A stretch of 61,984 nt of DNA, counting the filler, from a candidate division TA06 bacterium SM23_40 (lineage in GTDB: Bacteria; LJUI01; SM1-40): NCBI GenBank assembly GCA_001303705.1. It is 5 parts of 5 records of this genome, joined end to end, with 100 filler letters (N's around TTAATTAATTAA, not from the genome) between each part and the next. Parts side by side here need not be neighbours in the genome. Positions count along the whole stretch, not along the records: positions 1 to 11,480 come from LJUI01000078.1; positions 11,581 to 22,836 come from LJUI01000079.1; positions 22,937 to 34,057 come from LJUI01000080.1; positions 34,158 to 51,185 come from LJUI01000081.1; 1 more part is not named here. One strand, written 5' to 3'. The notes beneath the pieces were generated by a model. The model made no database searches and had not been told where the DNA came from. It saw only the letters and a program-made list of their open reading frames with translations. Positions within the stretch are counted from its first letter, which is position 1. Each line of letters begins with the position of its first letter. Positions 1 through 41,731 of the stretch are shown piece by piece. Both the position numbers and the translations under genes were made by a program.

Positions 1-248
1 CCCTGGAGGTCCAGAGCTTCTACGCGATTGGGGAGGTGATGCTGCCGAACGGCAACCCGTATACTGGCAATCCCGTGGTGGGGCCGCGGTCCATCACCCT
101 CCAGCCGGGTGGGTCCGCAACAGCACATGTAACGCACTTCATCCCATATAGCGCTCCTCTGGGGACGTACATCTACACGGGGACGATAGGGCTGCCGCCT
201 GATATCGTAATCGACAGCGACAGCTTCCAGTTTATCGTAACGCCATAG
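1..248 (+). CDS. 3' end of a protein (5'-truncated at window edge) consisting of the shared ~110-aa C-terminal domain
   Basis: Frame open from base 3; LPNGNPYTGNPVVGP...HFIPYSAPLGTYIYTGTIGLPP...DSDSFQF matches the C-termini of seven other ORFs in the window. Confidence 0.85.
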   Translation, partial: LEVQSFYAIGEVMLPNGNPYTGNPVVGPRSITLQPGGSATAHVTHFIPYSAPLGTYIYTGTIGLPPDIVIDSDSFQFIVTP

Positions 249-438
249 CGCGAGTTATGGCCCTGTAATGTGAATCACAATGTGAGTCGATGTCCACGGA
301 GTATCCACGAAACCCGGCGGACATGAGTACGAGGCAGATGGTCTGCCTTGAGAGCTGGACCTCTTCTGCTTTGTGCTCACGTCAGCCACTGTGTCCGTAG
401 TGACTATTTCCGCAACATACAGGAAAAAGGAGCAGACC

Positions 439-3132
439 ATGAAACGGACAGCCCTCTTGCTCGCACCCCTCGCTGCACTCGTCTTCGGCATATCCATTGT
501 GGCTGTGCCCGGTGCGCTTGCCGGCATAGCCTCCGGTGACGAGGCGCTCCACCTTGTCCTCGACCAGGTCCTCGATAACGACACAAAGGGAAAGCGCGTC
601 TTCGTCTCATCTGAGTGTTTCTCCCCCGGGACACCGATCCACTCTTGGAAGGGTGAGATCTTCACCACCGATACGTATGGCTGGGTCGTCTTCATCGACG
701 ATATGGCAGCCGCGAACTGGGAGCATCCCGCACGATACGTATTCGTGGAGCGCGAAACCGGGTCCCTGCGCGTGTACCATGCCATGGTCCCGTTCAGGGA
801 TGAGGATGGGTACCGGGAGTACCCCACCGAGATGCAGCGGCTCGTGCTCGAAGCTCAGCAGCACCGCCTCTCCTTCGAGGGCCTCCCCAAGGCGCCCCCT
901 CGCGACGTGGGCATCAACTACGCCGTGCTCATGAGCGGCGGCGCCAGCATGTCGAACAACCATATTCGCTACTGGAACGACCTCTCGAACCTGTATATCG
1001 GACTGAATGTGCTGTATGGGTACCTCGACGAGAACATCTACGTCCTCTGCTCCGATGGCCTCGATCCGGCACCCGACCGGAGCAACGGGACGAACTCGCC
1101 TCCCGATCTCGACGGAGACGGGGATGACGACATCGACTATTCCTGCATCAAGGCCAATATCCAGCTCGTCTTCGATGAACTCGCCTCCATTATCACGCCA
1201 GAAGATCAACTCTTCGTCTTCACCACCGATCACGGCGGTTCCAACTCAGGGTGGAACGTCTATCTCAACCTCTGGAACTGGGAAGAGCTCCAGGATTGGG
1301 AGCTGAGAGATATGGTCGATGCTCTCCCGCCGTGTAACATGATCTTCACCATGGAGCAGTGCTACAGCGGCGGGTTCATGGACGATGTCTGCTGGGATCA
1401 TGACGGCCGAGTCTTCTCGTCGGCATGTCGGTACGACGAGGTTTCATACGCGTCAATGAACCTCGAATACGACGAGTATGTCTTTCACTGGACGGCCGCG
1501 GTGCGATGGGAGGACGCGTACGGAAATCCTGTCGATGCCGACCTCAATTCAGACGGGCTCATCGACATGGAGGAGGCATTCATTTACGCCGAGGCTCATG
1601 ATGTTCGACCAGAGACTCCGCAGTATGACGATAGACCAGAAGGCCTCGGAGCCTTGCTCACGCTCTTCGGCGGCATGCAGCTCGGCTTTATCGAGGGCTA
1701 CGTGACGGATGCAAACACGAGCCTCGGACTCGAAGCAGAGGTGGAGGTCCTGGGAGCCGGCCGGGGCACAAGCTGCGATACGAGCGGGTACTATCACCTC
1801 GTCGTGGAGGCGGAGACAACCTATACACTCGAGGCAAGCTGTTTCGGCTATGTCTCGGCGCAGGGGTCGATCTTCGTCCCCGAGGGCCAAACCGTTCAGC
1901 TCGATTTCGCGCTCGATCCCGCGGCCACCGGGACGCTCGAGGGAACGGTCACGAGCACCCAGACCTTCCTCCCCATAGAGGGAGCGGAGATCACCATCCT
2001 CGAGACGCCGCTCGATCCGGTGTACACGAATGCACAGGGGTTCTATGCACTCGACCTGCCCGGAGGTGCGAGTTACGACGTCCGCGCCTCGGCGCTCGGT
2101 CACGAACCACAGGTGGCCGAGGCGGTGTACGTGGCACAGGGCACCACGACCACGCTCGATTTCGCCCTCAATCCCTGGCCCAGGATCTTGATCTGGGAGG
2201 CTGACCTCTCTCCCGTAAGCGGAGCCAGACAACAGGAGGCACTCGCCGCGCGAGGATTGGGCTCCATCATCTCGACCGATCTCCTAACCTTCGGCGATCT
2301 CAGCTACTTCGACGCCGTCTTCGTCAATGTCGGCATCTACCCGTCGAACTACGTGATTCCGGAGAATTCGGCCGAGGCATTGGCCTTCGAGACATACATC
2401 GAGAACGGCGGTAACGCGTACCTCGAGGGCGGCGACGTCTGGTACTACGATCCGATGGTCGGGGGCCACGACTTCGCCCCGCTCTTCTCGATCAACGCCA
2501 CGGCCGACGGGAGCGCCGATCTGAACTCGGTAGCGGGCCAGGCCAACACTCTGATGCCCGGCGTTGGCGGCATGTGGTTCAACTACACGGGAGAAAACAA
2601 CTGGATAGACCACATCATGCCGATCTCGCCGGCCGAGCTCGTCTTCAGCAATGCAGAGAACAGTGACCCCATAGCCGTGGCGAATGCCAACTCGTACGGC
2701 GGCCATACGCTCGGCGCATCGTTCGAGTTTGGCGGATTGGTGGATGGATCATCTACGCGTGAGGCGCTGATGGCGGAGATCGTCGAGTTCTTCGGCCTGA
2801 CGCTCAGTCTCGATCTCGTCCCTGATGCGGTCACCGTGCACCGGGGTGAGAGCCTCGGGTTCACGGCGAACATCACCAACCACGGGCTCACGCAGCAATC
2901 CATATACGGGTTGGGCGAGGTCACCCTCCCCAGCGGCAATCCGTATCCCGGGAATCCAGTCGACGGTCCTGTGTTGATCACGCTCGAGCCGGGCGAAACG
3001 AAGACGATCTATCGGTCTCACATCGTGCCGGAAATCGCCCCGCTGGGGGAGTACACCTATACGGGAAAGCTCGGGCTGCCGCCCGACAATCTGTTGGCAG
3101 AGGATGAATTCCACTTCATCGTCGAGCCATGA
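439..3132 (+). CDS. Secreted C13 (legumain/clan CD)-like cysteine peptidase with two carboxypeptidase-regulatory-like beta-sandwich repeats, a ~200-aa shared module and the shared C-terminal domain
   Basis: SD AAGGAG before ATG 439; signal peptide MKRTALLLAPLAAL; FVFTTDHGG (His) and MEQCYSGGF (Cys) dyad motifs; two GxxxGxVT...GAEI/AEV...GxYxL repeats. Confidence 0.8.
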   Translation: MKRTALLLAPLAALVFGISIVAVPGALAGIASGDEALHLVLDQVLDNDTKGKRVFVSSECFSPGTPIHSWKGEIFTTDTYGWVVFIDDMAAANWEHPARYVFVERETGSLRVYHAMVPFRDEDGYREYPTEMQRLVLEAQQHRLSFEGLPKAPPRDVGINYAVLMSGGASMSNNHIRYWNDLSNLYIGLNVLYGYLDENIYVLCSDGLDPAPDRSNGTNSPPDLDGDGDDDIDYSCIKANIQLVFDELASIITPEDQLFVFTTDHGGSNSGWNVYLNLWNWEELQDWELRDMVDALPPCNMIFTMEQCYSGGFMDDVCWDHDGRVFSSACRYDEVSYASMNLEYDEYVFHWTAAVRWEDAYGNPVDADLNSDGLIDMEEAFIYAEAHDVRPETPQYDDRPEGLGALLTLFGGMQLGFIEGYVTDANTSLGLEAEVEVLGAGRGTSCDTSGYYHLVVEAETTYTLEASCFGYVSAQGSIFVPEGQTVQLDFALDPAATGTLEGTVTSTQTFLPIEGAEITILETPLDPVYTNAQGFYALDLPGGASYDVRASALGHEPQVAEAVYVAQGTTTTLDFALNPWPRILIWEADLSPVSGARQQEALAARGLGSIISTDLLTFGDLSYFDAVFVNVGIYPSNYVIPENSAEALAFETYIENGGNAYLEGGDVWYYDPMVGGHDFAPLFSINATADGSADLNSVAGQANTLMPGVGGMWFNYTGENNWIDHIMPISPAELVFSNAENSDPIAVANANSYGGHTLGASFEFGGLVDGSSTREALMAEIVEFFGLTLSLDLVPDAVTVHRGESLGFTANITNHGLTQQSIYGLGEVTLPSGNPYPGNPVDGPVLITLEPGETKTIYRSHIVPEIAPLGEYTYTGKLGLPPDNLLAEDEFHFIVEP

Positions 3133-3277
3133 TGCAGATGGCGTTAGTAGGTGGCGGCGTTAGCAATCGAAGACCGATTCGCACAAGATTGAGTTCACCG
3201 GCCTCGCCCCTGCAGCACTGCTCCGGGATCGAGCCCCTGTTCCGGGCGGCAGCTGCGAACGTGAAAGGAGAGTTACG

Positions 3278-5341
3278 ATGAAGCCAGCACACTTCGTTGC
3301 TTCACTCATCGCCCTAGCGGCTCTTTCAGCCGCTGCCTGGGGATCTCAGCCCACGCCCCTTCAGGGCCCTCCAGAGGTCCCCTATCCTGTCTGGCATGAC
3401 AAGCCGTTCACTCTCTTTCCCGGCCCCCACGGGTTGGGCGACGAGGGCCGCGAGCCGGATGACTTCGACGTACTCGCCTACGACACGGATATGGAGATCG
3501 ATTTCCCATCGCAGACGATCGACGCCATAGAACTGCTCACCATCGAGAGCCTCATCGATGATCTCACGCAGGTGGAGCTGGACCTCGTCGACCTGACAGT
3601 CGACTATGTGCTGCGCGACGGGAATATCGTCGCATTCAGCCACGTGGGGGATGTACTCACGATCAGCCTCGATGTTCCGTTCAATACGGGTGAGGTCTTC
3701 ACCCTGGAAATCGGGTACCACGGCCATCCCGGCCATGAATCGTGGGGAGGCTTCTTCTTCACCTATGGCGCCTATGGAGCCAAGATCGTCTTCAACGTTG
3801 GGGCGGGCCTGTATGTTGATCCCCCGTCCATGGGCCGATACTGGATCCCTTCACACGATGTGCCCCACGATAAGGCGACTTCGGAAATGCGCGTCACCGT
3901 TCCCCTTGGTTGGACGGTGGGCTCCAACGGGCTCCTCGTGAGCGTCGACACGCTGGCCTCGGATGTGACATGGCACTGGTCGGAGCCGCATCAGATCGCG
4001 ACGTACTTGATCTCTATGGCTGCGTGCGAGAACTACACAACCTTCTCCCACTACTACCATCCGGATCGTCAGGACAGTATGGAAGTGATCTACTTCGTCT
4101 ATCCGCAGGATCTCTCGAAGGCGCAGATCGACTTCCAGAATGTCGTCGACATGATCGACTTCTACTCGAGCACCTATTATCCCTATCCGTTCGATAAGTA
4201 CGGCATAGCAGAGGTGGTCCTGAGCGGCGCCATGGAGCACCAGACGTTGACGGCATACGGGCAGAGCCTGATCACAGGTAATCTGCAATATGAGTGGATC
4301 ACCGCCCATGAGCTAGCGCACATGTGGTGGGGAGACATGGTGACACTCGGCGACTGGCGGGACATCTGGCTCAACGAGGGGTTCGCGTCGTACTTCGATC
4401 CACTGTACGTGGAGTACAAGTACGGCTGGAATGCTTTCCAGGCCCGGATGGCGTCCTATCGCAATTCGTACTTCATAGAGGATCAGTGGTCCCGCTTTCC
4501 GATCTACGATCCCCTCTGGATGTGGGGAGCGACGGTGTACGACAAAGGGGCGTGGGTGCTCCACATGCTGCGCTACGTGGTGGGTCATGATACCTTCGTC
4601 GATATCATGTACACCTATGCCGACACGTATACGTATGGCGTCGCCGTGACCCCGGACTTCCAGGGAGTCTGCGAACAGGTCTCGGGCCTCGACCTCGAGT
4701 GGTTTTTCCAGCAGTGGATCTATGAGGCAGGGTATCCGGAGTATGAGTACAGCTGGTATCAGGCGCCCCTGCCGAACGGGAAGCACATGGTGGGGGTACA
4801 CATCGACCAGGTGCAGCAGAATGCGCCTGTCTTCACGATGCCCCTGGAGATTACGATCGAGACGACGGGCGGAGAGGTCACCGAACGGATCGACATAGAC
4901 TCCGACTCGGTGGATTGGAATACGATGGTTGCCGACGCCCCGACAGATGTACTCGTCGACCGAGATAACTGGGTGCTAAAGAAGAGCACGGAGGTTTTGC
5001 CCCCGACGATCGGGATCGCCACCGCCCCCAAAGGCGGCGCCATACAGATCCCGCCCCAGGGCGGGAGCTTCGAGTACTGGGCGGTCGTCACCAATACCAC
5101 CGGCTCGGGCCAGGACTTCAGGGCCTGGACCGACGTGACGCTCCCGGGCGGCGGAACCTATGGCCCGGTCGTCGGACCGATCACGATCCATCTGGATCCG
5201 GGTCAGACGGTCGTCGTGTCCCGCTCCGAGTATGTGCCCGGCGGAGCCGGCCCGGGTATCTACTGCTATAATGCGTATGTCGCCGATCTCGGCATGAATG
5301 TCATGGACCAGTCGAGCTTCCCGTTCGAGAAGCTCCAATAA
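3278..5341 (+). CDS. Secreted M1-family zinc aminopeptidase with a variant of the shared C-terminal domain
   Basis: SD AAGGAG; signal peptide; GAMEH, HELAH-x18-E (NEGFA) and YDKG motifs. Confidence 0.92.
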   Translation: MKPAHFVASLIALAALSAAAWGSQPTPLQGPPEVPYPVWHDKPFTLFPGPHGLGDEGREPDDFDVLAYDTDMEIDFPSQTIDAIELLTIESLIDDLTQVELDLVDLTVDYVLRDGNIVAFSHVGDVLTISLDVPFNTGEVFTLEIGYHGHPGHESWGGFFFTYGAYGAKIVFNVGAGLYVDPPSMGRYWIPSHDVPHDKATSEMRVTVPLGWTVGSNGLLVSVDTLASDVTWHWSEPHQIATYLISMAACENYTTFSHYYHPDRQDSMEVIYFVYPQDLSKAQIDFQNVVDMIDFYSSTYYPYPFDKYGIAEVVLSGAMEHQTLTAYGQSLITGNLQYEWITAHELAHMWWGDMVTLGDWRDIWLNEGFASYFDPLYVEYKYGWNAFQARMASYRNSYFIEDQWSRFPIYDPLWMWGATVYDKGAWVLHMLRYVVGHDTFVDIMYTYADTYTYGVAVTPDFQGVCEQVSGLDLEWFFQQWIYEAGYPEYEYSWYQAPLPNGKHMVGVHIDQVQQNAPVFTMPLEITIETTGGEVTERIDIDSDSVDWNTMVADAPTDVLVDRDNWVLKKSTEVLPPTIGIATAPKGGAIQIPPQGGSFEYWAVVTNTTGSGQDFRAWTDVTLPGGGTYGPVVGPITIHLDPGQTVVVSRSEYVPGGAGPGIYCYNAYVADLGMNVMDQSSFPFEKLQ

Positions 5342-5474
5342 GGCTTCAATAGAGAGAACAGGTGCGGTGGGCTGCGATGCGGTCGATACCGGCAGATGAA
5401 GGGCCAACTTGCGGCAGGACCGGTCTGAATCGACTCATCGCAGCTCCCGATTTCCTGGGCCGGGATACTGGAAC

Positions 5475-5600
5475 GAGTTCACGGACCAGAAGGTTCACGG
5501 ACCAGGAGGTTCATGGACCAGGAGGTTCATGGACCAGGAGGTCCCCGAACCAGGAGGTTCCCGGATCTGGAGGGCCCCGAACCAAGAGGTTCCCGGACCA
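5475..5600. repeat. Degenerate 16-bp tandem repeat (GGTTCAYGGACCAGGA, about 8 units), intergenic
   Basis: Visible period-16 units ggttcacggaccagaa / ggttcacggaccagga / ggttcatggaccagga / ggtccccgaaccagga. Confidence 0.85.
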
Positions 5601-5625
5601 CGGGGAGAACGGAGGAGAATGTACC

Positions 5626-7377
5626 ATGAGGCTATTGAGTTGGGCGGCGAACCCGTGCCTGGCAGTGCTGCTCGCACTGATCATCTCCGGCCTTGGGAGC
5701 GAGGCCCTGGCCGCGATCCCCCTCGAGACGAGCCCGGCCTGGACGTCAATCGACGACAACTACTCGACCGGGGGCTTCTGGGGCGACATCGACGGAGACG
5801 GCTGGCTCGATCTCGCTGTCGGGAACGGCAACGACATGGATTTCGATCCCGACAACGTCTTTTTCAATCAGGAGGGTATGCTCGAGCTGACGCCGTCCTG
5901 GGTCTCGAGTGACCTCAACTGCGGAGCTCACATACACCTCGGCGACATCGACAAGGATGGAGGCCTCGACCTCGCTATCGGGAATCTCGGATACTACCTC
6001 CAGGGATTCCCTCCTCTGGCCGATGAGGTCTACTTCAATCAGGGGACTACATTCGAGCTCCTTCCGTCCTGGCAGACAGACGACGTCAACAATACGTTCG
6101 GAATCGCCCTCGGCGACCCGAATGGCGACGGCTACCTGGACTTCACGGCTGCGAATGGGATGGGGTATACGAGCACTCCGCAGGCCAACGACATCTACTT
6201 CAACAGCGGCGGAATCCTAGAAACAAGCCCCTCGTGGACCTCGGACGAGATCGACAATTCGATGGATGTGGCCTGGGGTGACATCGACAACGACGGGGAT
6301 CTGGACCTGGCCGTGGGAAACGAGCTGACGTTCGACCGCGTCTACTACAACAATGACGGTGTCGTCGAGACGTCCGCCTCATGGAGCAGCACGTACAACG
6401 ACGACGCGATCGCCATCGCCTGGGGCGACGTTGACGGAGATGGGTATCTTGATCTGGCGGTGGCAAACAACGATCAGCTGGGGGGGAGCGGGTACTTCAC
6501 GCTGTACGAGAATCAGGGAGGGTCCCTCTCCTCAATGCCGATCTGGTACAGCCAGTGGGCCGGCTATGCGTCGTACGTCTCGTTCGCGGATGTGGACAAT
6601 GATGAGGATTTCGATCTGGCCGCCGGAGGCTGGTGGGAGCCGTGCAGGATCTACGAGAATGTCAACGGATCCCTGACGACATGGCCTGCCTGGACCTCGG
6701 CAACATCGAGCGTGATCGAGGCGATGGTCTGGGGCGACGTCGATAACGACGGGTTGGTGACGGTATACGAGGAGGCGAAGTATGCTGATGGCGTGATGAA
6801 GGTCTTCTACGTCGATCATTGGCCATTCCATGAGCTTCTCGACGTAACCGTGGGCGGCACGAGCCTCCCGATCACCGAGTTCTGCTACGACCCGAACTCG
6901 GGCTGGATATCGCTCGCAGCTCCGCCGCCGGTCGGATACAGCGTCAGTTTCACATACCGCTATTCAGAGGATCTCGATCTTGCTGTGACCAACTGGGACC
7001 ACTACGTCGGCAACTACCTGTTCCTCAACTCACCGGACTATCCGGAGATCACGGTACGCTTCACTACCTACGAGGCCTCTGTGCCCCGAGGAGGAGAACT
7101 CGACTACTGGGCAGAGGTGACGAACCACACGGCTCAGCCACAAACCTTCTGGGGCGCGGCCTACCTGACCCTGCCCAACGGGAACCCCTATCAGGGCAAT
7201 CCGATCGTCGGGCCGGTCCAGATCACCCTCAGTTCTCACGAGTCGAGAGAGGTACACATGACGCACGACGTACCGCCGACCACCCCCCTCGGGACGTTCA
7301 CCTACACCGTCAAGGTCGGCCATCCACCGAACACCCTCATCGACTCCGACACATTCACCTTCACCACCCTCCCCTAA
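5626..7377 (+). CDS. Secreted FG-GAP/VCBS-repeat beta-propeller protein with the shared C-terminal domain
   Basis: SD GGAGGAG before ATG 5626; signal peptide; about seven WGDxDxDGxLDLAV repeats. Confidence 0.88.
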   Translation: MRLLSWAANPCLAVLLALIISGLGSEALAAIPLETSPAWTSIDDNYSTGGFWGDIDGDGWLDLAVGNGNDMDFDPDNVFFNQEGMLELTPSWVSSDLNCGAHIHLGDIDKDGGLDLAIGNLGYYLQGFPPLADEVYFNQGTTFELLPSWQTDDVNNTFGIALGDPNGDGYLDFTAANGMGYTSTPQANDIYFNSGGILETSPSWTSDEIDNSMDVAWGDIDNDGDLDLAVGNELTFDRVYYNNDGVVETSASWSSTYNDDAIAIAWGDVDGDGYLDLAVANNDQLGGSGYFTLYENQGGSLSSMPIWYSQWAGYASYVSFADVDNDEDFDLAAGGWWEPCRIYENVNGSLTTWPAWTSATSSVIEAMVWGDVDNDGLVTVYEEAKYADGVMKVFYVDHWPFHELLDVTVGGTSLPITEFCYDPNSGWISLAAPPPVGYSVSFTYRYSEDLDLAVTNWDHYVGNYLFLNSPDYPEITVRFTTYEASVPRGGELDYWAEVTNHTAQPQTFWGAAYLTLPNGNPYQGNPIVGPVQITLSSHESREVHMTHDVPPTTPLGTFTYTVKVGHPPNTLIDSDTFTFTTLP

Positions 7378-7382
7378 CCAAC

Positions 7383-7496: not shown

Positions 7497-7513
7497 TTTC
7501 GATACATTTTGTG

Positions 7514-7858: not shown

Positions 7859-9700
7859 ATGCTGCGGAGCATTGTTGTCCTGAGTGTAGGTTCTGCGCTC
7901 GCGCTGGCACTCTGGGTGCCGGCGACCCTGCAGGCTGTGGGGGATGCACATCCGGCTGCTCCGGTGAGGAGCGATGACGCGGTGGAATGGTCCGCCGGAG
8001 CCATTGAGAGCGAGTTCCCCAACACCCAGAGCATCGACCACGATATCGGCCAGCTCTGGCTCACGGTGACGAACTGGGGGTGTTTCGGTCCGAGCTATCC
8101 CGGCTATCAGGCCGGATGCGTCTTCCCCGCCGGGTCGAACACGACCTATCTCTATTGGGGAACGCTGTGGATCGGATCTATCGACGATACGGGTGACACG
8201 CTCGTGACCGCAGCCTGGGAGTACGACGAGTGGCCACTGCCGTGGTCTGGATGGTGTTTCCTCCCCGGGCCGCTCGACGGGATCGACGACGAGAAGGACA
8301 GCGTTCGGGTGGAGCAGGTGATCTCGGAGCAGGACTATATCGCTTGCTACAGTGACACGGCTACTCACGAAACGTGGCCTGATTACGTTGGTCCCGGTCA
8401 CACGCCGCAGGGAATCGAGGTGACGCAGCGGACTTACGCGTGGGGTCGCTCCCACCTGGAGGATTTCGTCGTCCTCGACTTCTCGCTGAAGAATGTAGGC
8501 TTCAGAACTCTCCACAACGTGTACATGGCACTCCACATGGACCCCGACTGTGGTCATTGGTTGGATCAGCCCATGTGGGAGACAGGCTGGGACGATGTGA
8601 CCGGCTTGCGGCGGTGGCGCGCTCCTGGTGACACGCTGTGGCCCGGAGGGACGACGTTCTACTCCGACCTCTATCCTGGAGGGATCGATGTCGGGGGAGA
8701 GGCGAAGGTCGAGTCTCCCACTGACTGTATCAATCTAGCGTGGGCTGCCGATGGTTCAGGGGTATCGGATCCCGATCGGTGGCACACGCCGTGTGCAACC
8801 GGGATGAGACTGCTGCGCGCGTCGAACCCGTGTGCGGAGATAGCATACAACTGGTGGGCGGTGTATGAGTGGGATCCGTGGTACGGTAACGAGGAGGTGT
8901 GGGGGCCTACTGATCCCGCCAATCCCTACGACGTCGGGGTGCCGGGAAATGATGATGAGCGGTACAGGGTGATGTCCAACCGGTACATCGATCCAGATCA
9001 GCTCGACCCGGTGAATGGCTCGCACGCGGTGCCCAGGGAGACGAGCTACCTCGTCTCGGTGGGCCCGCTCCTCCCCGTGGGGGGTGACCCGCGCCATCCC
9101 GATGGGTATTCATTCGCCCCCGGGGATTCGGCATTCGTCACGCTCGTCTACACGGGGGGAGAGGAGTTCCACGAGGACTTCGTGGTTCCGTCTGGCCCCG
9201 GCTTGTACGAGGGCCACTACGACTTCGCTGACATCGCGACGAATGCGTACCTCGCATACAGGATTTTCGATACGCCCGGTCTGGACACCGATGGCGACGG
9301 GTATCGCGGAGCGTACGTCGTGTACGTCTCCGGGGACACCGTGTGGGTGACGGGCGACGGGGTCCCCGACGTGGCCGCGGCTGCCGACCCGCCCGAGGAG
9401 GAACCCGCGTCCGGGCCTCCGGCAGAGATCGGCCTCCTGGGGATGTGGCCGAATCCGTGCGAGAATCGGCTCTTGATCCGGTACGCATTGCGCGAGGCTG
9501 AGCAGGTGGAAGTGAAGATCTACAACCTGCTCGGCCAGCTCGTGGCCACGTTACTCGATCGCGTGGAAGATGCGGGGGTGCATGAGTTAGTCTGGGACAC
9601 GCGCGATGCGTCGGGAAGGGAGCTGGCCTCGGGCGTCTATTTCTGCCGGTACCTGGCCGGCCGGGTCGGGGGCAAGGCCAGCTTCGTCGTGGTGCGCTGA
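7859..9700 (+). CDS. Secreted protein with C-terminal T9SS type-A-like / FlgD-Ig sorting domain
   Basis: SD GAGGAGGTG; signal peptide; tail WPNPCE...IRYAL...VKIYNLLGQLVATL...GVHELVWD...LASGVYF. Confidence 0.85.
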   Translation: MLRSIVVLSVGSALALALWVPATLQAVGDAHPAAPVRSDDAVEWSAGAIESEFPNTQSIDHDIGQLWLTVTNWGCFGPSYPGYQAGCVFPAGSNTTYLYWGTLWIGSIDDTGDTLVTAAWEYDEWPLPWSGWCFLPGPLDGIDDEKDSVRVEQVISEQDYIACYSDTATHETWPDYVGPGHTPQGIEVTQRTYAWGRSHLEDFVVLDFSLKNVGFRTLHNVYMALHMDPDCGHWLDQPMWETGWDDVTGLRRWRAPGDTLWPGGTTFYSDLYPGGIDVGGEAKVESPTDCINLAWAADGSGVSDPDRWHTPCATGMRLLRASNPCAEIAYNWWAVYEWDPWYGNEEVWGPTDPANPYDVGVPGNDDERYRVMSNRYIDPDQLDPVNGSHAVPRETSYLVSVGPLLPVGGDPRHPDGYSFAPGDSAFVTLVYTGGEEFHEDFVVPSGPGLYEGHYDFADIATNAYLAYRIFDTPGLDTDGDGYRGAYVVYVSGDTVWVTGDGVPDVAAAADPPEEEPASGPPAEIGLLGMWPNPCENRLLIRYALREAEQVEVKIYNLLGQLVATLLDRVEDAGVHELVWDTRDASGRELASGVYFCRYLAGRVGGKASFVVVR

Positions 9701-9727
9701 GCTGGCTGAAGGCTCCGCGTTAGGAGT

Positions 9728-9885: not shown

Positions 9886-11480
9886 TTATTGCCAGTTCTC
9901 GATGATGGTGAATTCGAAGGTGCGGCCGTCGACCGCCTCGTTGGGCAGGCGGTACAGGACCGCCCTGTACTGGTAATCACCGTACGGCGCAGCCACGGGA
10001 ATGTGGTGGCTCAGCTCCACCGTTCTCGTCTGCCCCGGCTGCAATGTGGCCTGTATGGGGCCAAGCACGGGATTCCCCTGATAGGGATTCCCGTTCGGCA
10101 GCACCACGTCGGCCCTGAAGTAGACGTTCTGCACCTGGTTGGTCGTGTTGACCGCAGTAGCCTCATAGACGAGGGTCTCTCCCGGTATGAGTATCTTCTC
10201 CTGGAGCTCGACCTCCAGCCGCACGTCCGGAAGATCGACGGCGAAGAAATCGAGATACTCCTCCATGAGCTCGGCTTTCGTGCTGGGCGAGACACCATCT
10301 ACCAGCCCGCCGAACTCGTAGGATGTGCCGACGGTCCGGTAGGTGCCGGAATCGTAGGCTACGCCACAGCCGGCGCCATCATCCGGGTTGACGAAGATCC
10401 GCACTGCCGATCCAGCCGCGTCGATGTGATCTACCGAATAGTTCCCGCCGCCGTACTGGAATGTCATGCCCTGAGTGAAGGTGCCAGCCTCTCCGTCGAC
10501 CTGGGATAGATCGTTCGATCCGTCCCCCGCCGCGGAGATCGAGAAGAGCGGACCGAAGTCGTATCCTCCGATCAGAGGATCAGCATACCAGGCATCTCCG
10601 CCCTCGAGGTAGACATTGCCGCAGCTCTCGATATAGGAGACGATCCTCTCCGCTTCATCGCTCCCGTCGTACACGACATAGTTCGCAGGACCCATGCCAA
10701 GGCAGGTGAAGAGACCGGTGAGTCGATCGAGATCGATGCGCGACAGCGAATCGATCACTGTCGCCGCAGCGCCTGACGCTTCGAGCGCCGTCACCAACTC
10801 CGGCCCGGAAGATGATGAGAGCGCCGGTTCCCAGATCCCGAATCTGAACTCGGGCCAAGAGACATAGCGATGCTCACACCCGATCCAATCCTTGTATGTG
10901 ACATAGGAGTGGCTCGAGCCGGTGATCTTCCCCTTCACGGCAACGGCGATCTTCGGCGGGAATCCACCCAGACCAAGCGTGTTCGTCGTCACCTTCACGG
11001 CAAGCGAAGGGAGGGTCACCGACCATCCTGACGGGTGATCATTTCCCAGGTCGAACGTCTTCTCCGTACTCCCGTCCAGGAACGAGAACGGATTCGCCAC
11101 GCTCACCATCACCTGGCAACTGTCGGCGAGATCCTGCCCTTCATACGGATGCGGCCCCGGGTATGTCAGCCGCACGCAGACCTCAAACGTATCGGGGAGC
11201 TCCCCGCCCCAGGACGAATGGACATCGACCTGCCACGGAGTCGACAGTAGTCCCCAACGGCTCCACTGGGTCCACAGATCATCGACCAGAAGCGCCTGGT
11301 TGAAGTGCACGTCCGGACCGTGGTACAGCCCGCTGTACCATGGGTCGTGCACGATGAAGACGTCAAGGTCGTCATCGTACCCTTTTATCACCCTGAAGTG
11401 CCCGCTGTAGTGATTGACGTCATACCAGCTCAGGATGAGGATGGGATAGTTCTGTGAGATGAGTCTCCTGAGATCGTCGT
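9886..11480 (-). CDS. C39-like cysteine peptidase (5'-truncated by contig end) with the ~200-aa shared module and the shared C-terminal domain
   Basis: Frame open to contig edge: LISQNYPILIL...SGHFRVIKGYD...VHDPW (His/Asp motif of C39-like peptidases); YLEGGDAWY module; LPNGNPYQGNPVLGP tail. Confidence 0.75.
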
Positions 11481-34157: not shown

Positions 34158-34384
34158 TGTCCTCGGGGCTGCGAAGCGCGATATTTCCGTGGTGCCGGCA
34201 ATCTGGCACCTCTATGTTGCGTCGACAGCTGGCAGTGGAATCGAGCTGGCAGTGAAATCGCTTGACAGGTGGGGCCGCTGAGTGTAGTATCCCGACGAGA
34301 GACCGGGCACGAGCCCGGTCTCTCTCTCTATATGGGGGCCGGGCGCGTGGCAGGAGCTGCGGGTGAGATGAGGGAGACAGGACC

Positions 34385-35101
34385 ATGGCAGCGCGTGGAC
34401 GAAGGAGGAACATCCGGGGGAGGAACATCCGGGAATGGCCCGAAGAGGAGAGGCCCCGCGAGCGGCTCCTGACGAAGGGAGAAGGTGCGCTCTCCGACAG
34501 CGAGCTGCTGGCGATCATCCTCCGCACAGGAGATGCGGTCGGGGGACTCAGCGCGGTGGAGCTTGCGCGTAACCTTCTGCGCCGATCGGGTGGGCTGAAG
34601 GGGCTCGACACGATGACTGCTACGGGATTGGTGAAGACGAAAGGGATCGGGCCGGCGAAAGCTGCCCAGGTCAAGGCTGCAGTCGAGCTCGGCAGACGGA
34701 TGCAGAGCGGGAGGCTTCGTCGAGGAAGGGGCTTCAGCTCATCGAATGAAGTGGCGGAGCACTTCCTCCCGTATCTCAGGGGGCTGCGGAAAGAGGTGTT
34801 CAAGATACTGCTGCTCGATGCCCGGAACCGGATGATCCGCGAGGAGACGGTCTCCGAGGGGAGCCTGACGGCGAGCATCGTCCATCCGCGGGAGGTATTC
34901 AAGGCCGCGGTCGAGGAGTCGGCAGCCTCGGTCATACTGGTTCACAATCATCCCACCGGTGATCCCACGCCGTCGAAGGAAGACCGTGCCATCACCCGTC
35001 AGCTGGTCAAGGCGGGGGAGATCATGAATATCAAGGTGCTCGACCACATCATCGTGGGCGACGGCGTGTACCTCAGTTTTGCCGATCAGGGGCTGTTGTA
35101 G
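34385..35101 (+). CDS. radC: RadC/JAB-domain protein, full-length form
   Basis: ERPRERLL...LSDSELLAIILRTG, GIGPAKA, VHPREVF, HNHPTGD...S..D, LDHIIVG; promoter TTGACA-N17-TAGTAT at 34262-34290. Confidence 0.95.
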   Translation: MAARGRRRNIRGRNIREWPEEERPRERLLTKGEGALSDSELLAIILRTGDAVGGLSAVELARNLLRRSGGLKGLDTMTATGLVKTKGIGPAKAAQVKAAVELGRRMQSGRLRRGRGFSSSNEVAEHFLPYLRGLRKEVFKILLLDARNRMIREETVSEGSLTASIVHPREVFKAAVEESAASVILVHNHPTGDPTPSKEDRAITRQLVKAGEIMNIKVLDHIIVGDGVYLSFADQGLL

Positions 35102-35150
35102 CGAGTAGGGGCGATGTGGAGGTTAGGGTTGCTTCCGTGGGCAGGTATCG

Positions 35151-35978
35151 CTAGCTTTCTCTCCAGGAGGCATAGTCCTCGATCGTCGTGACGCGTCCAT
35201 CCCTGAGACGCGCCGACCTGCCGAAGTCGGAGAGCTGGCGGAGAAGGGAAGAAGAGAAGACTGGTCCGTCGCGGCAGACCAGGTACCCGTCGCAGCAGCA
35301 CTGTCCACAGATGCCGATGCCGCACTTGATGTACCGCTCGAGCGCCGCCTGGCAGGGAAGGTGGTGAGCCTCGCAGATGTCGAAAACCTGGCGCATCATC
35401 GGCTCAGGCCCGCACGTATAGACGACATCTGTCGCCTTCGGGTCGAGGAGGGAGCGGAATGCCTCAACAGCCGACCCATGAAATCCCTCCGAGCCGTCGT
35501 CAGTGGCAAATGAGACCTCGGGGAACCGGTTGCGGAAAATGAGGAGGTCCTGCGAGCGGGCTCCATAGATGACGAGCGGCTGCTGGAGCCGGTCGATGAG
35601 CGCAGCGAGGGGCACGATCCCGATGCCGCCGGCGACGACACAGGCCCGACGTGAGCGCTCCACGACGGAGAATCCGTTCCCGTACGGGCCGCGCAGCCCG
35701 ATCGCAGATCCGGGAGTGAGGGAGAAGAGAGCGTGGGTGAACGGCCCTCGTTCCTTAACCGTGATGCCAACCTCCCCTTCGAAGTGGTGAGAGAGGGAGA
35801 ATGGCTTCTCGCCAACGCCCGGGAGCCAGATCATGAAGAACTGTCCTGGCTTGTACGCTGTGGAGTGACGGATGACCAGGGTCTTCACCCCGGGGGCTTC
35901 TGATATCACCTCGGTAATCTCTCGGAGCTGTGGCTGTTCGATCCTCGGACCTATCATCCTCTCCTCGGCGAATCGCAC
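35151..35978 (-). CDS. pyrK: Dihydroorotate dehydrogenase electron-transfer subunit
   Basis: PGQF, RGPYGNGF, AGGIGIVP, TDDGS, CGPEPMM, CGIGICGQC...C.DGPVF 2Fe-2S motif; next to pyrD. Confidence 0.92.
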   Translation of the reverse strand: MRFAEERMIGPRIEQPQLREITEVISEAPGVKTLVIRHSTAYKPGQFFMIWLPGVGEKPFSLSHHFEGEVGITVKERGPFTHALFSLTPGSAIGLRGPYGNGFSVVERSRRACVVAGGIGIVPLAALIDRLQQPLVIYGARSQDLLIFRNRFPEVSFATDDGSEGFHGSAVEAFRSLLDPKATDVVYTCGPEPMMRQVFDICEAHHLPCQAALERYIKCGIGICGQCCCDGYLVCRDGPVFSSSLLRQLSDFGRSARLRDGRVTTIEDYASWRES

Positions 35979-35992
35979 AACTGCGAATCACG

Positions 35993-36904
35993 TCACTGGT
36001 GAGCTGCTCCCACTATCTCTGTCAGGCTCTCATAGCCGTGGTCTTCCATCCACGTCCTGATCTCCCGGCAGACCTCGCTGAACACGTCCATCCCCCGGTA
36101 GTACACCGCTGATCCGATGCCTACCGCCCGCGCCCCGGCCATCATCATCTCGATCGCATCCCTCCCCGTGGTGATGCCCCCCACTCCGATGATCGGCAGG
36201 TCGACCGCCTCATAGATGTCATACACACACCGGACAGCAACCGGCCGCAGGGCAGGCCCGCTCACTCCACCCTTCTTGAATCCGAGCACCGGTCGCGCCG
36301 CCTCGATGTTGATGACCATTCCCGGGCCGATCGTGTTGACAGCGGTGATCCCGTCGGCTCCTCCATCGCGTGCCGCTTTGGCGAGATCGACGACCTCCGG
36401 CCCGCCGGCGGGGAGCTTCACAAACAGCGGCAGCTTCGTCTTGTCGCGGACGAGCGACGTGATCCTTCTGATCGCATCGGTCGAGGCATGTCCGCCCATC
36501 AGCCCGAACCCGGGGGTATGGGGACACGAGACCGGGATCTCAGTGGCCGCGAACGGCAGCGCGGTGAGTATCTCAGCTACTGCTGCGAACTCCTCGGGCT
36601 CGGTGCCGACGGCGCTGGCGATCACCGGCACGGGCAGCTGGTCGACCGCGGCGAACTCCTCGCGTGCCGCCTCGGCGCCGGGGTTGGGATAGCCCATGGC
36701 ATTGAGCATCCCCGCCTCATACGTCACGACGCATGGGTTGTCATGGCCGGACCGCGGCTCGAGACTGATCGACTTCGTCGTAACCGCACCGGCACCGCAG
36801 GATGCCACGCGCGCAAGCGAGCATCGGCTCACCCCGAGGACGCCTGAAGCCAGAATGGTCGGGTTGGGAAGCTTGATGCCGCAGAGGTCGATAGAGAGAT
36901 CCAT
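35993..36904 (-). CDS. pyrD: Dihydroorotate dehydrogenase (family 1B) catalytic subunit
   Basis: NPTILASG, TKSI, NAMGYPNPG, SCPH, VKL, NT, GGVSGPALRP, IIGVGGI; real start MDLSID; promoter TTGACA-N17-TAGGCT at 37006-36978. Confidence 0.94.
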   Translation of the reverse strand: MDLSIDLCGIKLPNPTILASGVLGVSRCSLARVASCGAGAVTTKSISLEPRSGHDNPCVVTYEAGMLNAMGYPNPGAEAAREEFAAVDQLPVPVIASAVGTEPEEFAAVAEILTALPFAATEIPVSCPHTPGFGLMGGHASTDAIRRITSLVRDKTKLPLFVKLPAGGPEVVDLAKAARDGGADGITAVNTIGPGMVINIEAARPVLGFKKGGVSGPALRPVAVRCVYDIYEAVDLPIIGVGGITTGRDAIEMMMAGARAVGIGSAVYYRGMDVFSEVCREIRTWMEDHGYESLTEIVGAAHQ

Positions 36905-37039
36905 TTCGCCCTCTTGCTGATGGCGGTTAGTGGTTCGGCTGCCCGGTGACCGTAGTTCGTACTTGCGTCGGCTTGAGAGCCTACCCGATTCGCGCCGTCC
37001 TGTCAACCGCCCCGCCCATCGGAAAGTCACTGAGCAGGG

Positions 37040-37089
37040 CTGGTAAGAGCTAACCACCGGATCCCGGGTTCGAGTCCTGCCCGGGGAGC
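37040..37089 (+). pseudogene. Decayed tRNA fragment resembling the 3' half of tRNA-Asn
   Basis: TGGTAAGAGC-TAACCA...GGTTCGAGTCCTGCCCGGGGAG; no 5' acceptor strand, imperfect T-stem, no CCA. Confidence 0.5.
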
Positions 37090-37360
37090 TTCTCGTCAGT
37101 AAGAACCAGTCGAGTGGACAGCGTTTACAAGTTCCGACATTGACCATGACACCCTTGCTCAAAGGGGGTACACTCAACGTGAGTATGATATTCGCGAGAT
37201 TTCTGCTCGAATCAGGACTGGCAGAGGGCGCCCGGTGGCCTCGGGAATAGGCGGCACCGCAACAGCTCGAGGGTGGGTTATTCGAGAGCGACACCGAGCG
37301 TCACTAGGTGAGGGGTCGTTCTTTTCTTTTTCTGGCTAGATTGACGAGAGGGAGGATACC

Positions 37361-38608
37361 ATGCGAGTCGCCATTCTAGGCCTGCTGGCGGCGGCATTGC
37401 TGTGCCCCCTGGTCAGCAATGCTACCGTGGTTCACGTTCCTGGCGACCAGCCCACCATCCAGGCAGGGCTCGATGCAGCTGCCTTCGGAGATACTGTCCT
37501 GGTGGCGCCGGGAAGGTACGTGGAGAACATCATCTGGCCGGATGTTGATGGAATCAAACTGATTGGAGACGGGAGGAGGACCACGGTTATCGATGGCAAT
37601 AACGTAGCCAGCGTCATCCGCTTTAAGAGCGGAAGCATCATCACAAATTCGACAGTGGTCGAAGGATTCACGATCACCAACGGGAATGCACAGCCACCCT
37701 GGCCCTTGTCTCTGGGCGGTGGGATCTGCATATTCGCCTCCGCTCCAATTCTCAGGGATCTTACGGTCACTGAGAATTTCGCTGACGACTTCGGCGGAGG
37801 CATATATTGCTGGGGCTCATCGAATCCCATCTTGAGCCATGTCGCCATCATCAACAATACTGCTTTATCACGGGGCGGATACTCAGGTGGTGGGGGCTAT
37901 CACCTACTGGACCACGTAACGATTGCAGGAAACGATCCGGGAGGTTTCTATATCGAATCTGCATATCAAGGAGGCCTGTTGGTAAACTGCGTCGTTGCCT
38001 TCAACACCTTCTATGGGGTACAGCTTCAGGGGACCTCATTTCAGCCAACCTATCTGGATATCGCCTACTCAGACATAAACGATCCTGTGTGGGAGATTGG
38101 CTACTCTGCGGTGAACTGGCTGGAAGGGAACATCGATGCGGATCCCGTGGTTGTATTGAAGGAAGAGCAAGACTATCGTCTGCTCTGGGAATCGCCCTGC
38201 ATCGATGCAGGGGATCCTGACTCTCTTGACCCGGACGGCACTCGGACCGACATGGGGGCGCATTTCTTCGATCAGGATGACTACTTGACGCTCTACCTGG
38301 CGCCCCATGAGACGGAGGTATCGCCCGGCGGAATCCTCGGGGTGACCTACACGGCGATCAACCGGTGGGCGCAGCCCGAGTCGTTCTGGGTGCTGACGGA
38401 GGCGACCCTTCCGAACGGGAACCCCCGGAATGTCCTCGGTCCGATCCCGTACACGTTGCCGGGGAATACGACCGTGCAGCAGTACATTAGTCGCGACGTG
38501 CCCTTGGCTGCGCCATTGGGTATGTATGAGTATTGGTCCCGAATCGGGGTGCCGCCGTCGACGCTGTACGATGAGGACAGCTTCGGCTTCTGGGTGACGG
38601 GGCCATAG
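37361..38608 (+). CDS. Secreted right-handed beta-helix (pectin-lyase-like fold) protein, paralog 1, with shared C-terminal domain
   Basis: SD GGAGG; signal peptide; VPGDQPTIQAGLDAA..GDTVLVAPGRY.EN; GGGI repeats; SPCIDAGDP...DPDGTRTDMGA. Confidence 0.88.
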   Translation: MRVAILGLLAAALLCPLVSNATVVHVPGDQPTIQAGLDAAAFGDTVLVAPGRYVENIIWPDVDGIKLIGDGRRTTVIDGNNVASVIRFKSGSIITNSTVVEGFTITNGNAQPPWPLSLGGGICIFASAPILRDLTVTENFADDFGGGIYCWGSSNPILSHVAIINNTALSRGGYSGGGGYHLLDHVTIAGNDPGGFYIESAYQGGLLVNCVVAFNTFYGVQLQGTSFQPTYLDIAYSDINDPVWEIGYSAVNWLEGNIDADPVVVLKEEQDYRLLWESPCIDAGDPDSLDPDGTRTDMGAHFFDQDDYLTLYLAPHETEVSPGGILGVTYTAINRWAQPESFWVLTEATLPNGNPRNVLGPIPYTLPGNTTVQQYISRDVPLAAPLGMYEYWSRIGVPPSTLYDEDSFGFWVTGP

Positions 38609-38644
38609 TGCGGTGGGAGAAGTTCCAACACCAAGGAGGAATGC

Positions 38645-39886
38645 ATGCGGGTCACTACTCTAGGCTTGCTGGCGGTGGCGTTGTTGTTTCCCCTGATCGC
38701 GAATACGACCGTGATCCACGTCCCTGGCGACCAGCCCACGATTCAGGCTGGCCTCGATGTGGCAGTCTTCGGAGATACTGTTCTTGTCGCGCCGGGAAGG
38801 TACATTGAGAACATTATCTGGCCGGATGTGGACGGGATCAAGCTGATAGGAGACGGAAGGGAAAGCACGATTATCGACGGGAATCATGTGGCCAGCGTGA
38901 TTCGCTTTGAGACTCATGATATCATCACCAACGCGACGGTCGTCGAAGGATTCACCATCACGAACGGGAACGCGCTTCCCCCGTGGCCTGAGTCAGAGGG
39001 TGGCGGGATTTTCCTGTTCTACGCTGATCCGATTCTGAGGAACCTGGCTATCCGGGAGAACTTCGCCGACGACTTCGGAGGAGGTGTCTATTCCTGGGGT
39101 TCGTATCCCATTCTCAGCCATGTTCTCATTGCCGACAATGAAGCGATCTCCCGGGGGGGATTCGTGGGCGACAGGGGCTCGCCTACCTTGGATCACGTAA
39201 CCGTTGCCGGGAACACTCCGGGCGGCCTCTATTTCGGTGAACAATCGTCGGGGTCGTTAGAGAACTGTATTGTCTCCTCCAACTATCTGTACGGGATAGA
39301 GCTCGTCTCCGGCATGTATTCGGCCACCGTGATAAGCATCGCCTGGTCGGATATCGATGATCAAGTGTGGCTCATCGGCAACTCCTATGTGAACTGGCTG
39401 GGAGTGAATATCGACGAAGATCCTCTGTTTGCGCTGGAGGAGGAGCAGGACTATCGTCTGCTCTGGGAATCACCCTGTATCGATGCCGGCGATCCGAGTA
39501 TCCTCGACCCGGACGACACTCGGACCGACATGGGAACGTACTTCTTCGATCAAGATGACTACCTGACGCTCTACCTGACGCCCGATCAGCCCGAGGTATC
39601 GCCCGGCGGGATCCTGGGAGTCACGTACACGGCGATCAACCGGTGGGCGCAGTCCGAGCCGTTCTGGGTATTGACAGAGGCGACCCTTCCGAACGGGAAC
39701 CCCCGGAATGTCCTCGGTCCGATCCCGTACATGTTGCCAGCGAATACGACCGTGCAGCAGCACATCGGTCACAATGTGCCCCTGGCTGCGCCAGCGGCTA
39801 TGTACGGGTATCGGTCCCGGATCGGGGTGCCGCCGTCGACATTGTACGACGAGGATAGTTTTGCGTTCAGGGTGGTGGAGCCCTGA
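38645..39886 (+). CDS. Secreted beta-helix protein, paralog 2, with shared C-terminal domain
   Basis: SD AAGGAGG; same architecture as paralog 1, with near-identical N- and C-terminal parts. Confidence 0.88.
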   Translation: MRVTTLGLLAVALLFPLIANTTVIHVPGDQPTIQAGLDVAVFGDTVLVAPGRYIENIIWPDVDGIKLIGDGRESTIIDGNHVASVIRFETHDIITNATVVEGFTITNGNALPPWPESEGGGIFLFYADPILRNLAIRENFADDFGGGVYSWGSYPILSHVLIADNEAISRGGFVGDRGSPTLDHVTVAGNTPGGLYFGEQSSGSLENCIVSSNYLYGIELVSGMYSATVISIAWSDIDDQVWLIGNSYVNWLGVNIDEDPLFALEEEQDYRLLWESPCIDAGDPSILDPDDTRTDMGTYFFDQDDYLTLYLTPDQPEVSPGGILGVTYTAINRWAQSEPFWVLTEATLPNGNPRNVLGPIPYMLPANTTVQQHIGHNVPLAAPAAMYGYRSRIGVPPSTLYDEDSFAFRVVEP

Positions 39887-40114
39887 TGGGGAGGCAGGCG
39901 GAAGGCTCGTGAGCGGGCCCGGCTCCCGGATACGCGGGTCTCGGCTGTCAGGGGATATGCGGACGGTACATGCGCCGGTTGGGTTGACTCGGGAGCATCG
40001 GGCGCCCTACGGTGAGGCGTTCGAGGGTCCCGGGTATACGTGCCCGGGGGATACGGGCCCGGGGGAGGGACATCGAGTTGAGCGTGCTTTGGCGCTTGTG
40101 ATGCAGTTTTTCGC

Positions 40115-40143
40115 TTGACACCGCCGAGGATTGATGATATAAT
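40115..40143 (+). promoter_or_regulatory. Perfect-consensus sigma70 promoter
   Basis: TTGACA-N17-TATAAT with extended -10 TG. Confidence 0.85.
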
Positions 40144-40486
40144 TCCCAAAACGGTGAGCAATGGTTGCTCCGGCATATTCCCGGCGATGGCCGGGGGATG
40201 TGCCGAAAGAGATACTAGACATAGCGGTGTGGAAGGGCGGTGGTTGTACGGTGGCGGATGAGGTGAGGGGTATGCCGGGAGCCGACAAAGCAGTCGGCTC
40301 CGGTAAAGAGAATGTTGTGACGGTGAACGGCTACACGCCTGGAGCGTAGTAGTGAGGGCTCCGAGGATGTAGCCGTGTGTATTTGGCGTTACTGGGGGAG
40401 CCGCGCGAGGGAGGTGCGGAGGGGAATCTAGTAGGCCGGGAGACACACATCGTCACCTAAACGTGCATCAAAAGGAGGGTGGCTCG

Positions 40487-41731
40487 ATGAGATCTGTGAC
40501 AGTTCTTGTGAGCGCAGCGTTGGTACTTGGGTTGAGCGCAGCCGCGTCGGCGACGATTCTGAACGTGCCGGCGGACTACCCGACCATTCAGTCCGGAGTA
40601 GATGCCGCGGCGGATGGCGACACCGTCCTGGTATCGTATGGTCTGTACACCGGCCCCGGAAACGTGAACATCGATTTCGAGGGAAAGGCGATCGTGGTCA
40701 TGTCGGAGTGCGGGCCCGAAGTGACTATCATCGACTGCGATGGGACCTGTCGCACCGGGTGCCGTGGGTTCTACCTCCACAGCGGGGAAGGCCCCAACTC
40801 GGTAATTCAGGGGTTCACGATTCGGAACGGCCACGTATTCGGCGCATGGCCATTGTCCACCGGGGGTGGTATCCTGTGCGATGGAGCCTCCCCGACTATC
40901 ATTGGGAATATCGTGACCTGCAATGTGGCGGACGGTGCAGGAGGTGGGATCTCATTCCGCAACTCTTCCTCAGTAATGGTGGGCAACACAATCAGGTGGA
41001 ATACGACAGCGTACGATGGTGGTGGGATCTTCGCTGAGGGCTCGTCCCTGGTCATGGATCGCAACACGATCGCAGGAAACGTAGCCGACAAGGGCGGTGG
41101 GATCTTCTGCGCTGCAGTCTCTTCAGCCACAGTCATCAATTCGATCTTCTGGGGGAATGAGGGTGCTCCGGGTCCCTCGATCCACAAGACCGGCGGGAGC
41201 ACTGTTACTGTCACCTACTCGGATGTGGAGGGCGGCTGGACGGGTGAGGGGAACTTCTTTCTCCCTCCGATGTTCGTGCTCTGGGACAAACGCGACGTAC
41301 GCCTCCTCTGGGAATCGCCCTGTATAGACGCGGGGCACCCGGACTCTCTGGATCCCGACGGCACACGCTGTGATATGGGGGCACACTTCTTCAATCAGGA
41401 TGATTATCTCACGCTCTACCTGACTCCCGACGCAGCGGCGGTACCACAGGGTGGGCAGCTCGGGGTGACATACACGGTCATAAACCGCTGGGCGCAGCCC
41501 GAGACATTCTGGGTGCTCACGGAAGTCATTCCCCCTGTAGGAGCGCCGTTGACAGTAGTCGGCCCGGGCCAGTATGCCATCCCGGCAGGATTTACCGCGC
41601 AGCAGTATCTCGAGCACCATGTGCCGCCGATGGCCCCGCTCGGGGACTACTTATACTACGCGAGAATCGGAACGCCGCCGGCGAACCTGTATGACCAGGA
41701 TCGCTTCCTGTTCACCATTACAGGGCCCTAG
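40487..41731 (+). CDS. Secreted beta-helix protein, paralog 3, with shared C-terminal domain
   Basis: SD AAGGAGG; signal peptide; VPADYPTIQSGVDAAADGDTVLV; GGGI repeats; SPCIDAGHP. Confidence 0.88.
   Translation: MRSVTVLVSAALVLGLSAAASATILNVPADYPTIQSGVDAAADGDTVLVSYGLYTGPGNVNIDFEGKAIVVMSECGPEVTIIDCDGTCRTGCRGFYLHSGEGPNSVIQGFTIRNGHVFGAWPLSTGGGILCDGASPTIIGNIVTCNVADGAGGGISFRNSSSVMVGNTIRWNTTAYDGGGIFAEGSSLVMDRNTIAGNVADKGGGIFCAAVSSATVINSIFWGNEGAPGPSIHKTGGSTVTVTYSDVEGGWTGEGNFFLPPMFVLWDKRDVRLLWESPCIDAGHPDSLDPDGTRCDMGAHFFNQDDYLTLYLTPDAAAVPQGGQLGVTYTVINRWAQPETFWVLTEVIPPVGAPLTVVGPGQYAIPAGFTAQQYLEHHVPPMAPLGDYLYYARIGTPPANLYDQDRFLFTITGP

Follow-up and report, generated by a model that had tools for sequence, protein, structure and literature searches.

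Shared tails in the window

The window analysed here is a 61,984-nucleotide stretch of DNA joined from five contig parts of candidate division TA06 bacterium SM23_40 (GCA_001303705.1). A sequence-only reading of it had described eight open reading frames (ORFs) that end in one common domain of about 110 aa, hereafter the tail. All eight tails lie where that reading placed them: a profile built from 40 copies outside the window scores every one of them, with E values from 2e-37 to 1.7e-24. The genes indeed fall on two contigs, in clusters on C24 and C28 (C labels denote contigs of the window's own genome, G000).

The first tail (3..245, +) belongs to a gene truncated where contig C24 begins (ORF <1-248), of which it forms the final 81 aa; it scores 109 bits with profile A1 and E 5.8e-31 with the non-window profile. 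The gene at 439..3132 (+) encodes an exported C13 peptidase with two CarboxypepD_reg domains, a shared domain of ~210 aa, and a tail at residues 790-897 (2806..3129, +; 130 bits). An exported M1 aminopeptidase (3278..5341, +) carries a variant form of the tail at residues 579-687 (5012..5338, +; 99 bits), and the tail of an exported FG-GAP propeller (5626..7377, +), at residues 476-583 (7051..7374, +), is the copy that we used for folding. On the opposite strand, a C39_2-like peptidase with its 5′ end cut by the contig end (9886..11478, -) contains the ~210-aa shared domain and a tail followed by 3 residues (9898..10221, -; 127 bits). Three exported beta-helix proteins, all on the plus strand, complete the set: 37361..38608 (tail 38288-38602), 38645..39886 (tail 39566-39880), and 40487..41731 (tail 41411-41725).

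The six ORFs with an intact 5′ end, for which Sec-type signal peptides had been claimed, do show a signal-peptide-like N-terminus by eye, and their start codons are preceded by a purine-rich stretch resembling a Shine–Dalgarno sequence. Domain matches bear out the cargo labels C13, M1, FG-GAP, beta-helix, and C39-like (the last as C39_2). These cargoes had been called unrelated. Different cargo types do share one tail, but they are less independent than that description implies: the beta-helix proteins are paralogues (41-72% identical), and the proteins of 439-3132 and 9886-11480 have ~210 further residues before the tail in common (41% over 324 aa). Seven ORFs of the window have a cargo that can be seen, and these cargoes therefore represent five distinct types.

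The ~210-aa unannotated domain (window 2180-2800, +, and 10230-10860, -) precedes the tail in these two proteins, is without a Pfam match, and sits behind the tail in four internal cases; we take it to have a GATase-like look. The gene at 7859..9700 (+), also exported, provides a contrast. As read from the sequence, it has a conventional type IX secretion system (T9SS)/FlgD-Ig tail, with FlgD_ig and TIGR04183 above cut-off, and the non-window tail profile scores nothing there; it thus has a T9SS type-A C-terminal domain (CTD). A full-length 16S rRNA gene lies inside the second segment of the window (C25:3245-4817).

A terminal module on many exported cargoes

Searching six-frame ORFs of the window's own genome with an iterated profile gave 107 tail copies on 56 contigs, one per ORF; the best match in a reversed-ORF control has E 1.2. 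The tail ends within 5 aa of the stop codon in 85 of the 107 copies, 6-30 aa from it in 15, and further in in seven. A genome-wide profile check thus places it terminally in 100/107 copies. Across 94 full copies, identity averages 35%. Comparison of the 100 sufficiently long cargoes gave 42 families, with 26 groups lacking any domain in common; the largest family is beta-helix, with 42 members. Sec-exported peptidases, beta-helix proteins, propellers, and redoxins are represented, as are the classic T9SS families C25, M14, S8, PAD, and Omp28. The view of the tail as a lineage-expanded terminal module on heterogeneous exported cargo is upheld by these counts.

Our own heuristic, used in place of SignalP, called a signal peptide in 61 of 86 5′-complete tail ORFs; for CTD ORFs the figure was 40 of 62, and for other genes 176 of 815. 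When 20 of the 25 misses were re-read, seven turned out to have their signal peptide encoded upstream of a TGA in frame, and three proved to be broken genes; the five remaining misses are signal-peptide-like by eye. Neither a lipobox nor a transmembrane segment occurs among the 61 signal-peptide-called mature tail proteins. This agrees with the earlier remark that the tail has no transmembrane helix and, together with the all-beta model described below, rules out a PEP-CTERM/sortase-type anchor (motif, transmembrane helix, and basic cluster).

Nine tail cargoes contain an in-frame TGA with an open frame upstream, and seven of them show a signal peptide there: C75:2717 and 4210 (+), C99:4155 (+), C124:3376-5154 (-), C19:62669 (+), C80:2-475 (-), C65:2065 (-), C60:9189 (-), and C171:12221 (-). 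The TGA stands beside Cys or in a U-x-x-C pattern in eight of the nine, and a tRNA-SeC is present in the genome; judging from sequence, these cargoes are probable exported selenoproteins. A redoxin-like fragment that starts just past a stop and ends in a tail is also found in seven other genomes (L083, L123-L129) and is probably of the same selenoprotein type. Three further tail genes are broken by an in-frame TAG or a frameshift (C79:10808, +; C5:1639, +; C117:627, -) and are likely pseudogenes or assembly errors.

Fold and family relationship

The predicted structure of the 5626-7377 tail is an all-beta immunoglobulin (Ig)/fibronectin type III (FnIII) sandwich with a mean predicted local distance difference test (pLDDT) score of 96.4. 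Its top structural match is RbmA (PDB 4be5, 4kkp), a biofilm protein that binds a sugar polymer, on which the sandwich can be superposed, and profile similarity to the RbmA-like FnIII family (PF22021) is detectable at 14-18% identity. No T9SS CTD structure appears among the best 50 rows of the fold searches, beyond which a weaker match is possible. ESM Atlas feature searches with the single domain returned unnamed clusters with a recognition score below the tool's bar.

The eight window tails reach no Pfam or NCBIfam cut-off. The PF22021 gathering cut-off (27 bits) is not reached by the window copies, and among 46 single copies there is one match, with E 0.003. A three-copy relative, P0003, passes it when the scores of its copies are summed (44.9 bits); the best of 17 further relatives, of which 12 are multi-copy, scores 16.9 bits and falls short. 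Membership in CARDB or NEW3 was rejected: the best NEW3 match has E 0.0005, in 3 of 46 members, CARDB gave no match, and a window copy scores 17.8 bits in the NEW3/CARDB test against a cut-off of 24.4. The tail is thus a distant branch of the RbmA-like FnIII/CARDB/NEW3 Ig group, with RbmA-like FnIII as its nearest family and borderline membership there; the T9SS CTD, CARDB, NEW3, and PEP-CTERM families do not include it. The statement that it could not be assigned to a named family holds for the eight copies themselves, all below every cut-off, but not for this distant relationship. We found no description of the domain in the literature searched, in which a mention in a table could have been missed.

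Relation to the T9SS type-A CTD

The window's own genome has 63 TIGR04183 matches and, with a local profile, 73 CTD ORFs. Overlap between these and the 107 tail ORFs is zero. SprA, PorU, and six PorV-family genes score above cut-off. Homologues among the CTD cargoes exist for 68 of 100 tail cargoes, and some tail/CTD cargo pairs are collinear up to the junction. The window M1 peptidase (3278..5341), for example, is 39-40% identical over about 600 aa to a paralogue that ends in a type-A CTD (G000:C51:13276-15411).

The tail itself is not a type-A CTD. Compared with the genome's own CTD profile it gives an hhalign probability of 0.6%, and TIGR04183 and PF18962 find no match on the eight tail ORFs. 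The last residue is Lys or Arg in 6 of 93 tails versus 56 of 68 CTDs, and the last 12 aa contain 0.6 Lys or Arg in tails versus 3.2 in CTDs. A cleavage-type linker motif, for which we derived a regular expression from this genome's CTD linkers, precedes 2 of 93 tails versus 43 of 65 CTDs. We reject the assignment because profile similarity and the basic end are both missing and the linker motif is rare. A review of the T9SS (PMC10202324) describes terminal lysines as necessary for type-A signals, CTD proteins as tracking T9SS core genes, and types B and C as existing alongside type A.

Two loci bear on the secretion system itself. A T9SS operon (L188; G000:C62:2932-17073, -) encodes PorU, PorV, an M6-like CTD protein, a 298-aa protein, an NHL protein, and a 1221-aa protein with a weak SprA match, like the weak matches in ~1140-aa ORFs of genomes G032 and G033. 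At L189 (G000:C101:21040-33027, -), the genes just downstream of SprA are two tandem PilB-type ATPases and another pilus ATPase-like gene. The genome, in which GldK was looked for without success, therefore may have a T9SS without the canonical ring and motor.

Distribution in other organisms

The tail family matches 5249 clusters at E<=1e-3 and 2601 at 1e-10 and shows expansion in 16 or more genomes; among 30 other bacterial genomes chosen at random, none gave a match. Some close homologues are hypothetical proteins of candidate division TA06 in NCBI. We classed position in the best 150 of the 5249 clusters plus 27 further ones, a sample that is biased to the type found in the window's genome and includes some of its proteins. 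Before counting, 19 large multi-repeat proteins were dropped, one of them a NEW3/MG2/CARDB repeat protein, since no copy in them reached 40 bits. Among the 158 remaining representatives, 102 have the tail at the end, 37 have it before an extension of 8-40 aa, 16 before a type-A CTD, and 3 otherwise internal; 17 of the 158 are multi-copy. A conserved Trp segment is present in 33 of the 37 short extensions and also behind each copy in tandem proteins; it folds as an extra strand (E129-137, pLDDT about 80), and most copies in the window's genome are without this strand.

Four genomes titled Gemmatimonadota or Glassbacteria hold 40-138 tail copies, SprA, and 52-122 CTDs. In these and in G035, all 33 top-scoring copies examined lie within 15 aa of the end without a CTD; one further copy is N-terminal in its protein. 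The tail occurs in 5 of 5 genomes of the phylum of G031. In that of G032 the pattern is all-or-none: 6 of 41 genomes have 15-43 copies, and at E<=1e-12 the others have none. The phylum of G035, planctomycete-like as we judge from its protein types, has 6-15 copies in 4 of 81 genomes and one copy in another 4. Those four richer genomes (G035, G037, G077, G104) have no SprA, PorV, or TIGR04183 match, using models that do match other genomes, and 29 of 30 tail copies examined in T9SS-less genomes of this phylum are terminal. In a quick tree, which does not tell in what order CTDs were gained or lost, one branch holds 27 of this phylum's 31 copies (SH-aLRT 95). Outside it, all 12 tail-rich genomes have SprA, as do 12 of 13 tail-free relatives. 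A T9SS is therefore neither necessary nor sufficient for the tail.

Partner genes and export routes

The idea of a co-occurring translocon or scaffold found no counterpart near the tail genes. In 40 neighbourhoods from eight genomes, compared with the non-tail, non-CTD ORFs of the window's genome, we saw no dedicated translocon, sortase, or scaffold gene; the comparison is blind to an unlinked or very divergent receptor. The recurrent families are common ones only (kinases, radical SAM, Lon, M14). Regular expressions found no dockerin-like or PEP-CTERM-like motif in 2024 called genes. A complex prediction of the tail with the PorV beside PorU on C62, one of six or more paralogues, scored 0.00; run without controls, it gives no answer and is not evidence.

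The T2SS (type II secretion system) protein GspD scores above cut-off in 6 of 6 tail-rich versus 1 of 35 tail-free genomes of the phylum of G032. At a looser threshold (E<=1e-60), 9 of the 35 tail-free genomes have GspD-like matches, and the six positives probably form one clade, so the association would amount to one event. In the phylum of G035, GspD-like genes occur in 61 of 81 genomes, almost all tail-free, and are uninformative there. GspD also passes its cut-off in G031 and G116, and GspD-like secretins are present in all four T9SS-less tail genomes. Two secretins occur in the window's genome (89.8% completeness), in which GspD does not pass its cut-off and neither GspG nor T2SS-specific operon orthologues were found; the one outer-membrane route clearly found there is the T9SS. 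With no clear T2SS at this completeness, its tail proteins may be periplasmic, or leave via the second secretin cluster, a missing locus, or the T9SS. That cluster (L197; G000:C55) combines a secretin with N0/STN and without AMIN with PilX/PilV/PilM-N-like genes and a CsgG-like protein; its gene content suggests a second pilus or a divergent T2SS-like system.

Interpretation

The feature is real, is larger than the window alone showed, and behaves like a portable terminal anchor or address. Our favoured reading, to which we give about an even chance, takes the tail for a portable binding module of RbmA-like FnIII/Ig type that is retained on the mature protein and anchors it at the cell envelope. 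Distribution, fold, homology, and the mutual exclusion of tail and CTD are results of the analysis; retention, ligand, location, and export route are inferred. Fused behind a Sec-exported cargo, it would take the terminal slot of the type-A CTD and act by binding rather than by cleavage and conjugation. Where a CTD follows, the T9SS would export the protein and CTD removal would leave the tail at the mature end; where none does, the protein would exit by another route (T2SS in several genomes) or stay periplasmic. We favour retention because tandem-only proteins exist, the tail can stand before a CTD, it does not depend on T9SS, and it lacks a cleavage-type linker. Single-copy terminal use and CTD exclusivity weigh the other way and keep an export tag alive. 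Of the earlier proposal of an export signal or docking domain, the terminal module in the CTD slot stands, but anchoring or binding fits better than an export signal, given the T9SS-independent terminal position, the 16/158 representatives with a following CTD, and the 17/158 with several copies. The "new system" went beyond what we found.

A possible but, to us, doubtful alternative is that the tail serves as a portable address for export. It would then form a second sorting code next to the type-A CTD, with a secretin system or a PorV paralogue as its reader. One form of it, which we consider unlikely, has GspC/GspD reading the folded tail and sending any cargo across the outer membrane. The GspD distribution in the phylum of G032, the secretins of G031, G116, and the T9SS-less genomes, and a plasmid list in the RbmA paper that mentions a native type II secretion signal all point this way, and there is precedent in PMC7949064, which describes a PelI Fn3 loop that contacts GspC and GspD as a T2SS signal; Fn3 domains can also aid Sec transport (PMC9190976). 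Yet the GspD link is probably one event, GspD-like genes are frequent in tail-free genomes, the window's genome is among the richest in copies and has no clear T2SS, and 16 representatives have the tail before a T9SS CTD. The other form, an additional CTD type handled by a PorV-family shuttle in SprA-positive lineages, as types B and C stand beside A, would account for the zero overlap with CTD ORFs, the cargo swaps collinear to the junction, the classic T9SS families among the cargoes, the T9SS genes of the window's genome with no other clear outer-membrane route found there, and SprA in all 12 tail-rich genomes outside the phylum of G035. We hold it improbable, and somewhat more so than T2SS targeting: besides the profile, terminus, and linker results, the tail is expanded and terminal in four genomes without detected T9SS, largely as a branch of its own; SprA is also present in 12 of 13 tail-free relatives; and most PorV paralogues lie beside type-A-like CTD genes, with none directly adjoining a tail gene.

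A passive accessory Ig domain of the CARDB/NEW3 kind, a spacer or folding aid spread by gene duplication without a specific ligand, would have to be reconciled with 42 cargo families in one genome, a terminal position where a spacer needs something behind it, an all-or-none distribution, and family-specific loops conserved at 35% mean identity; we rank this between the two export forms. Least probable of all, to our judgment, is dockerin-like docking, in which the tail would bind a scaffold or other tails and build an enzyme complex, possibly by edge beta-strand addition at the edge that long forms fill with their Trp-bearing strand. The folding of that strand, its absence from most copies in the window's genome, the lack of dockerin-like or PEP-CTERM-like motifs, and the dimerisation in trans of RbmA FnIII domains (reported in PMC5605196) suit it, but the 40 neighbourhoods hold no scaffold or conserved partner gene.

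Under the retained-anchor reading, the RbmA fold, known from a matrix protein of Vibrio, would turn out to serve as an envelope module in general. An export address would mean that paralogous enzymes are sorted to different destinations in several uncultured phyla, and in its T2SS form it would mean, unusually, that dozens of unrelated substrates carry one folded tag. Tail ORFs make up ~7% and CTD proteins 6% of residues in the roughly called gene set of the window's genome, so annotation by CTD only misses more than half of its tagged secretome. The family is large and without a name, and a confidently folded domain of 108 aa is easy to express, making the choice between anchor and export tag directly testable.

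Comparison with known systems

Like the T9SS type-A CTD (TIGR04183, PF18962), the tail is an Ig-like module at the end of Sec-exported proteins from the same cargo families, and in paralogues the two are swapped at the same junction. It differs in lacking profile similarity, the basic terminal motif, and the cleavage-type linker, in its ability to stand before a real CTD, and in its presence in genomes without detected T9SS. From CARDB (PF07705) and NEW3/NPCBM_assoc (PF10633), neither of whose cut-offs any tail copy reaches, it is set apart by a longer C-C′ loop and F-G hairpin motifs specific to its family. RbmA of Vibrio cholerae is likewise exported and has the same Ig/FnIII sandwich, and the tandem-only tail relatives mimic its two-domain layout; RbmA, however, is a stand-alone matrix protein, whereas the tail mostly occurs as one copy at the end of the protein, on dozens of enzymes. 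Single tail copies miss the Pfam cut-off, and glycan binding by the tail is putative.

Dockerin, SLH, CWB2, and WxL are non-covalent terminal anchors in which one portable module is placed on unrelated exported cargo. The tail belongs to another sequence family, and we identified no receptor, scaffold, or wall polymer for it. It shares with these anchors the portable module on unrelated cargo and, if our reading is right, its retention on the mature protein.
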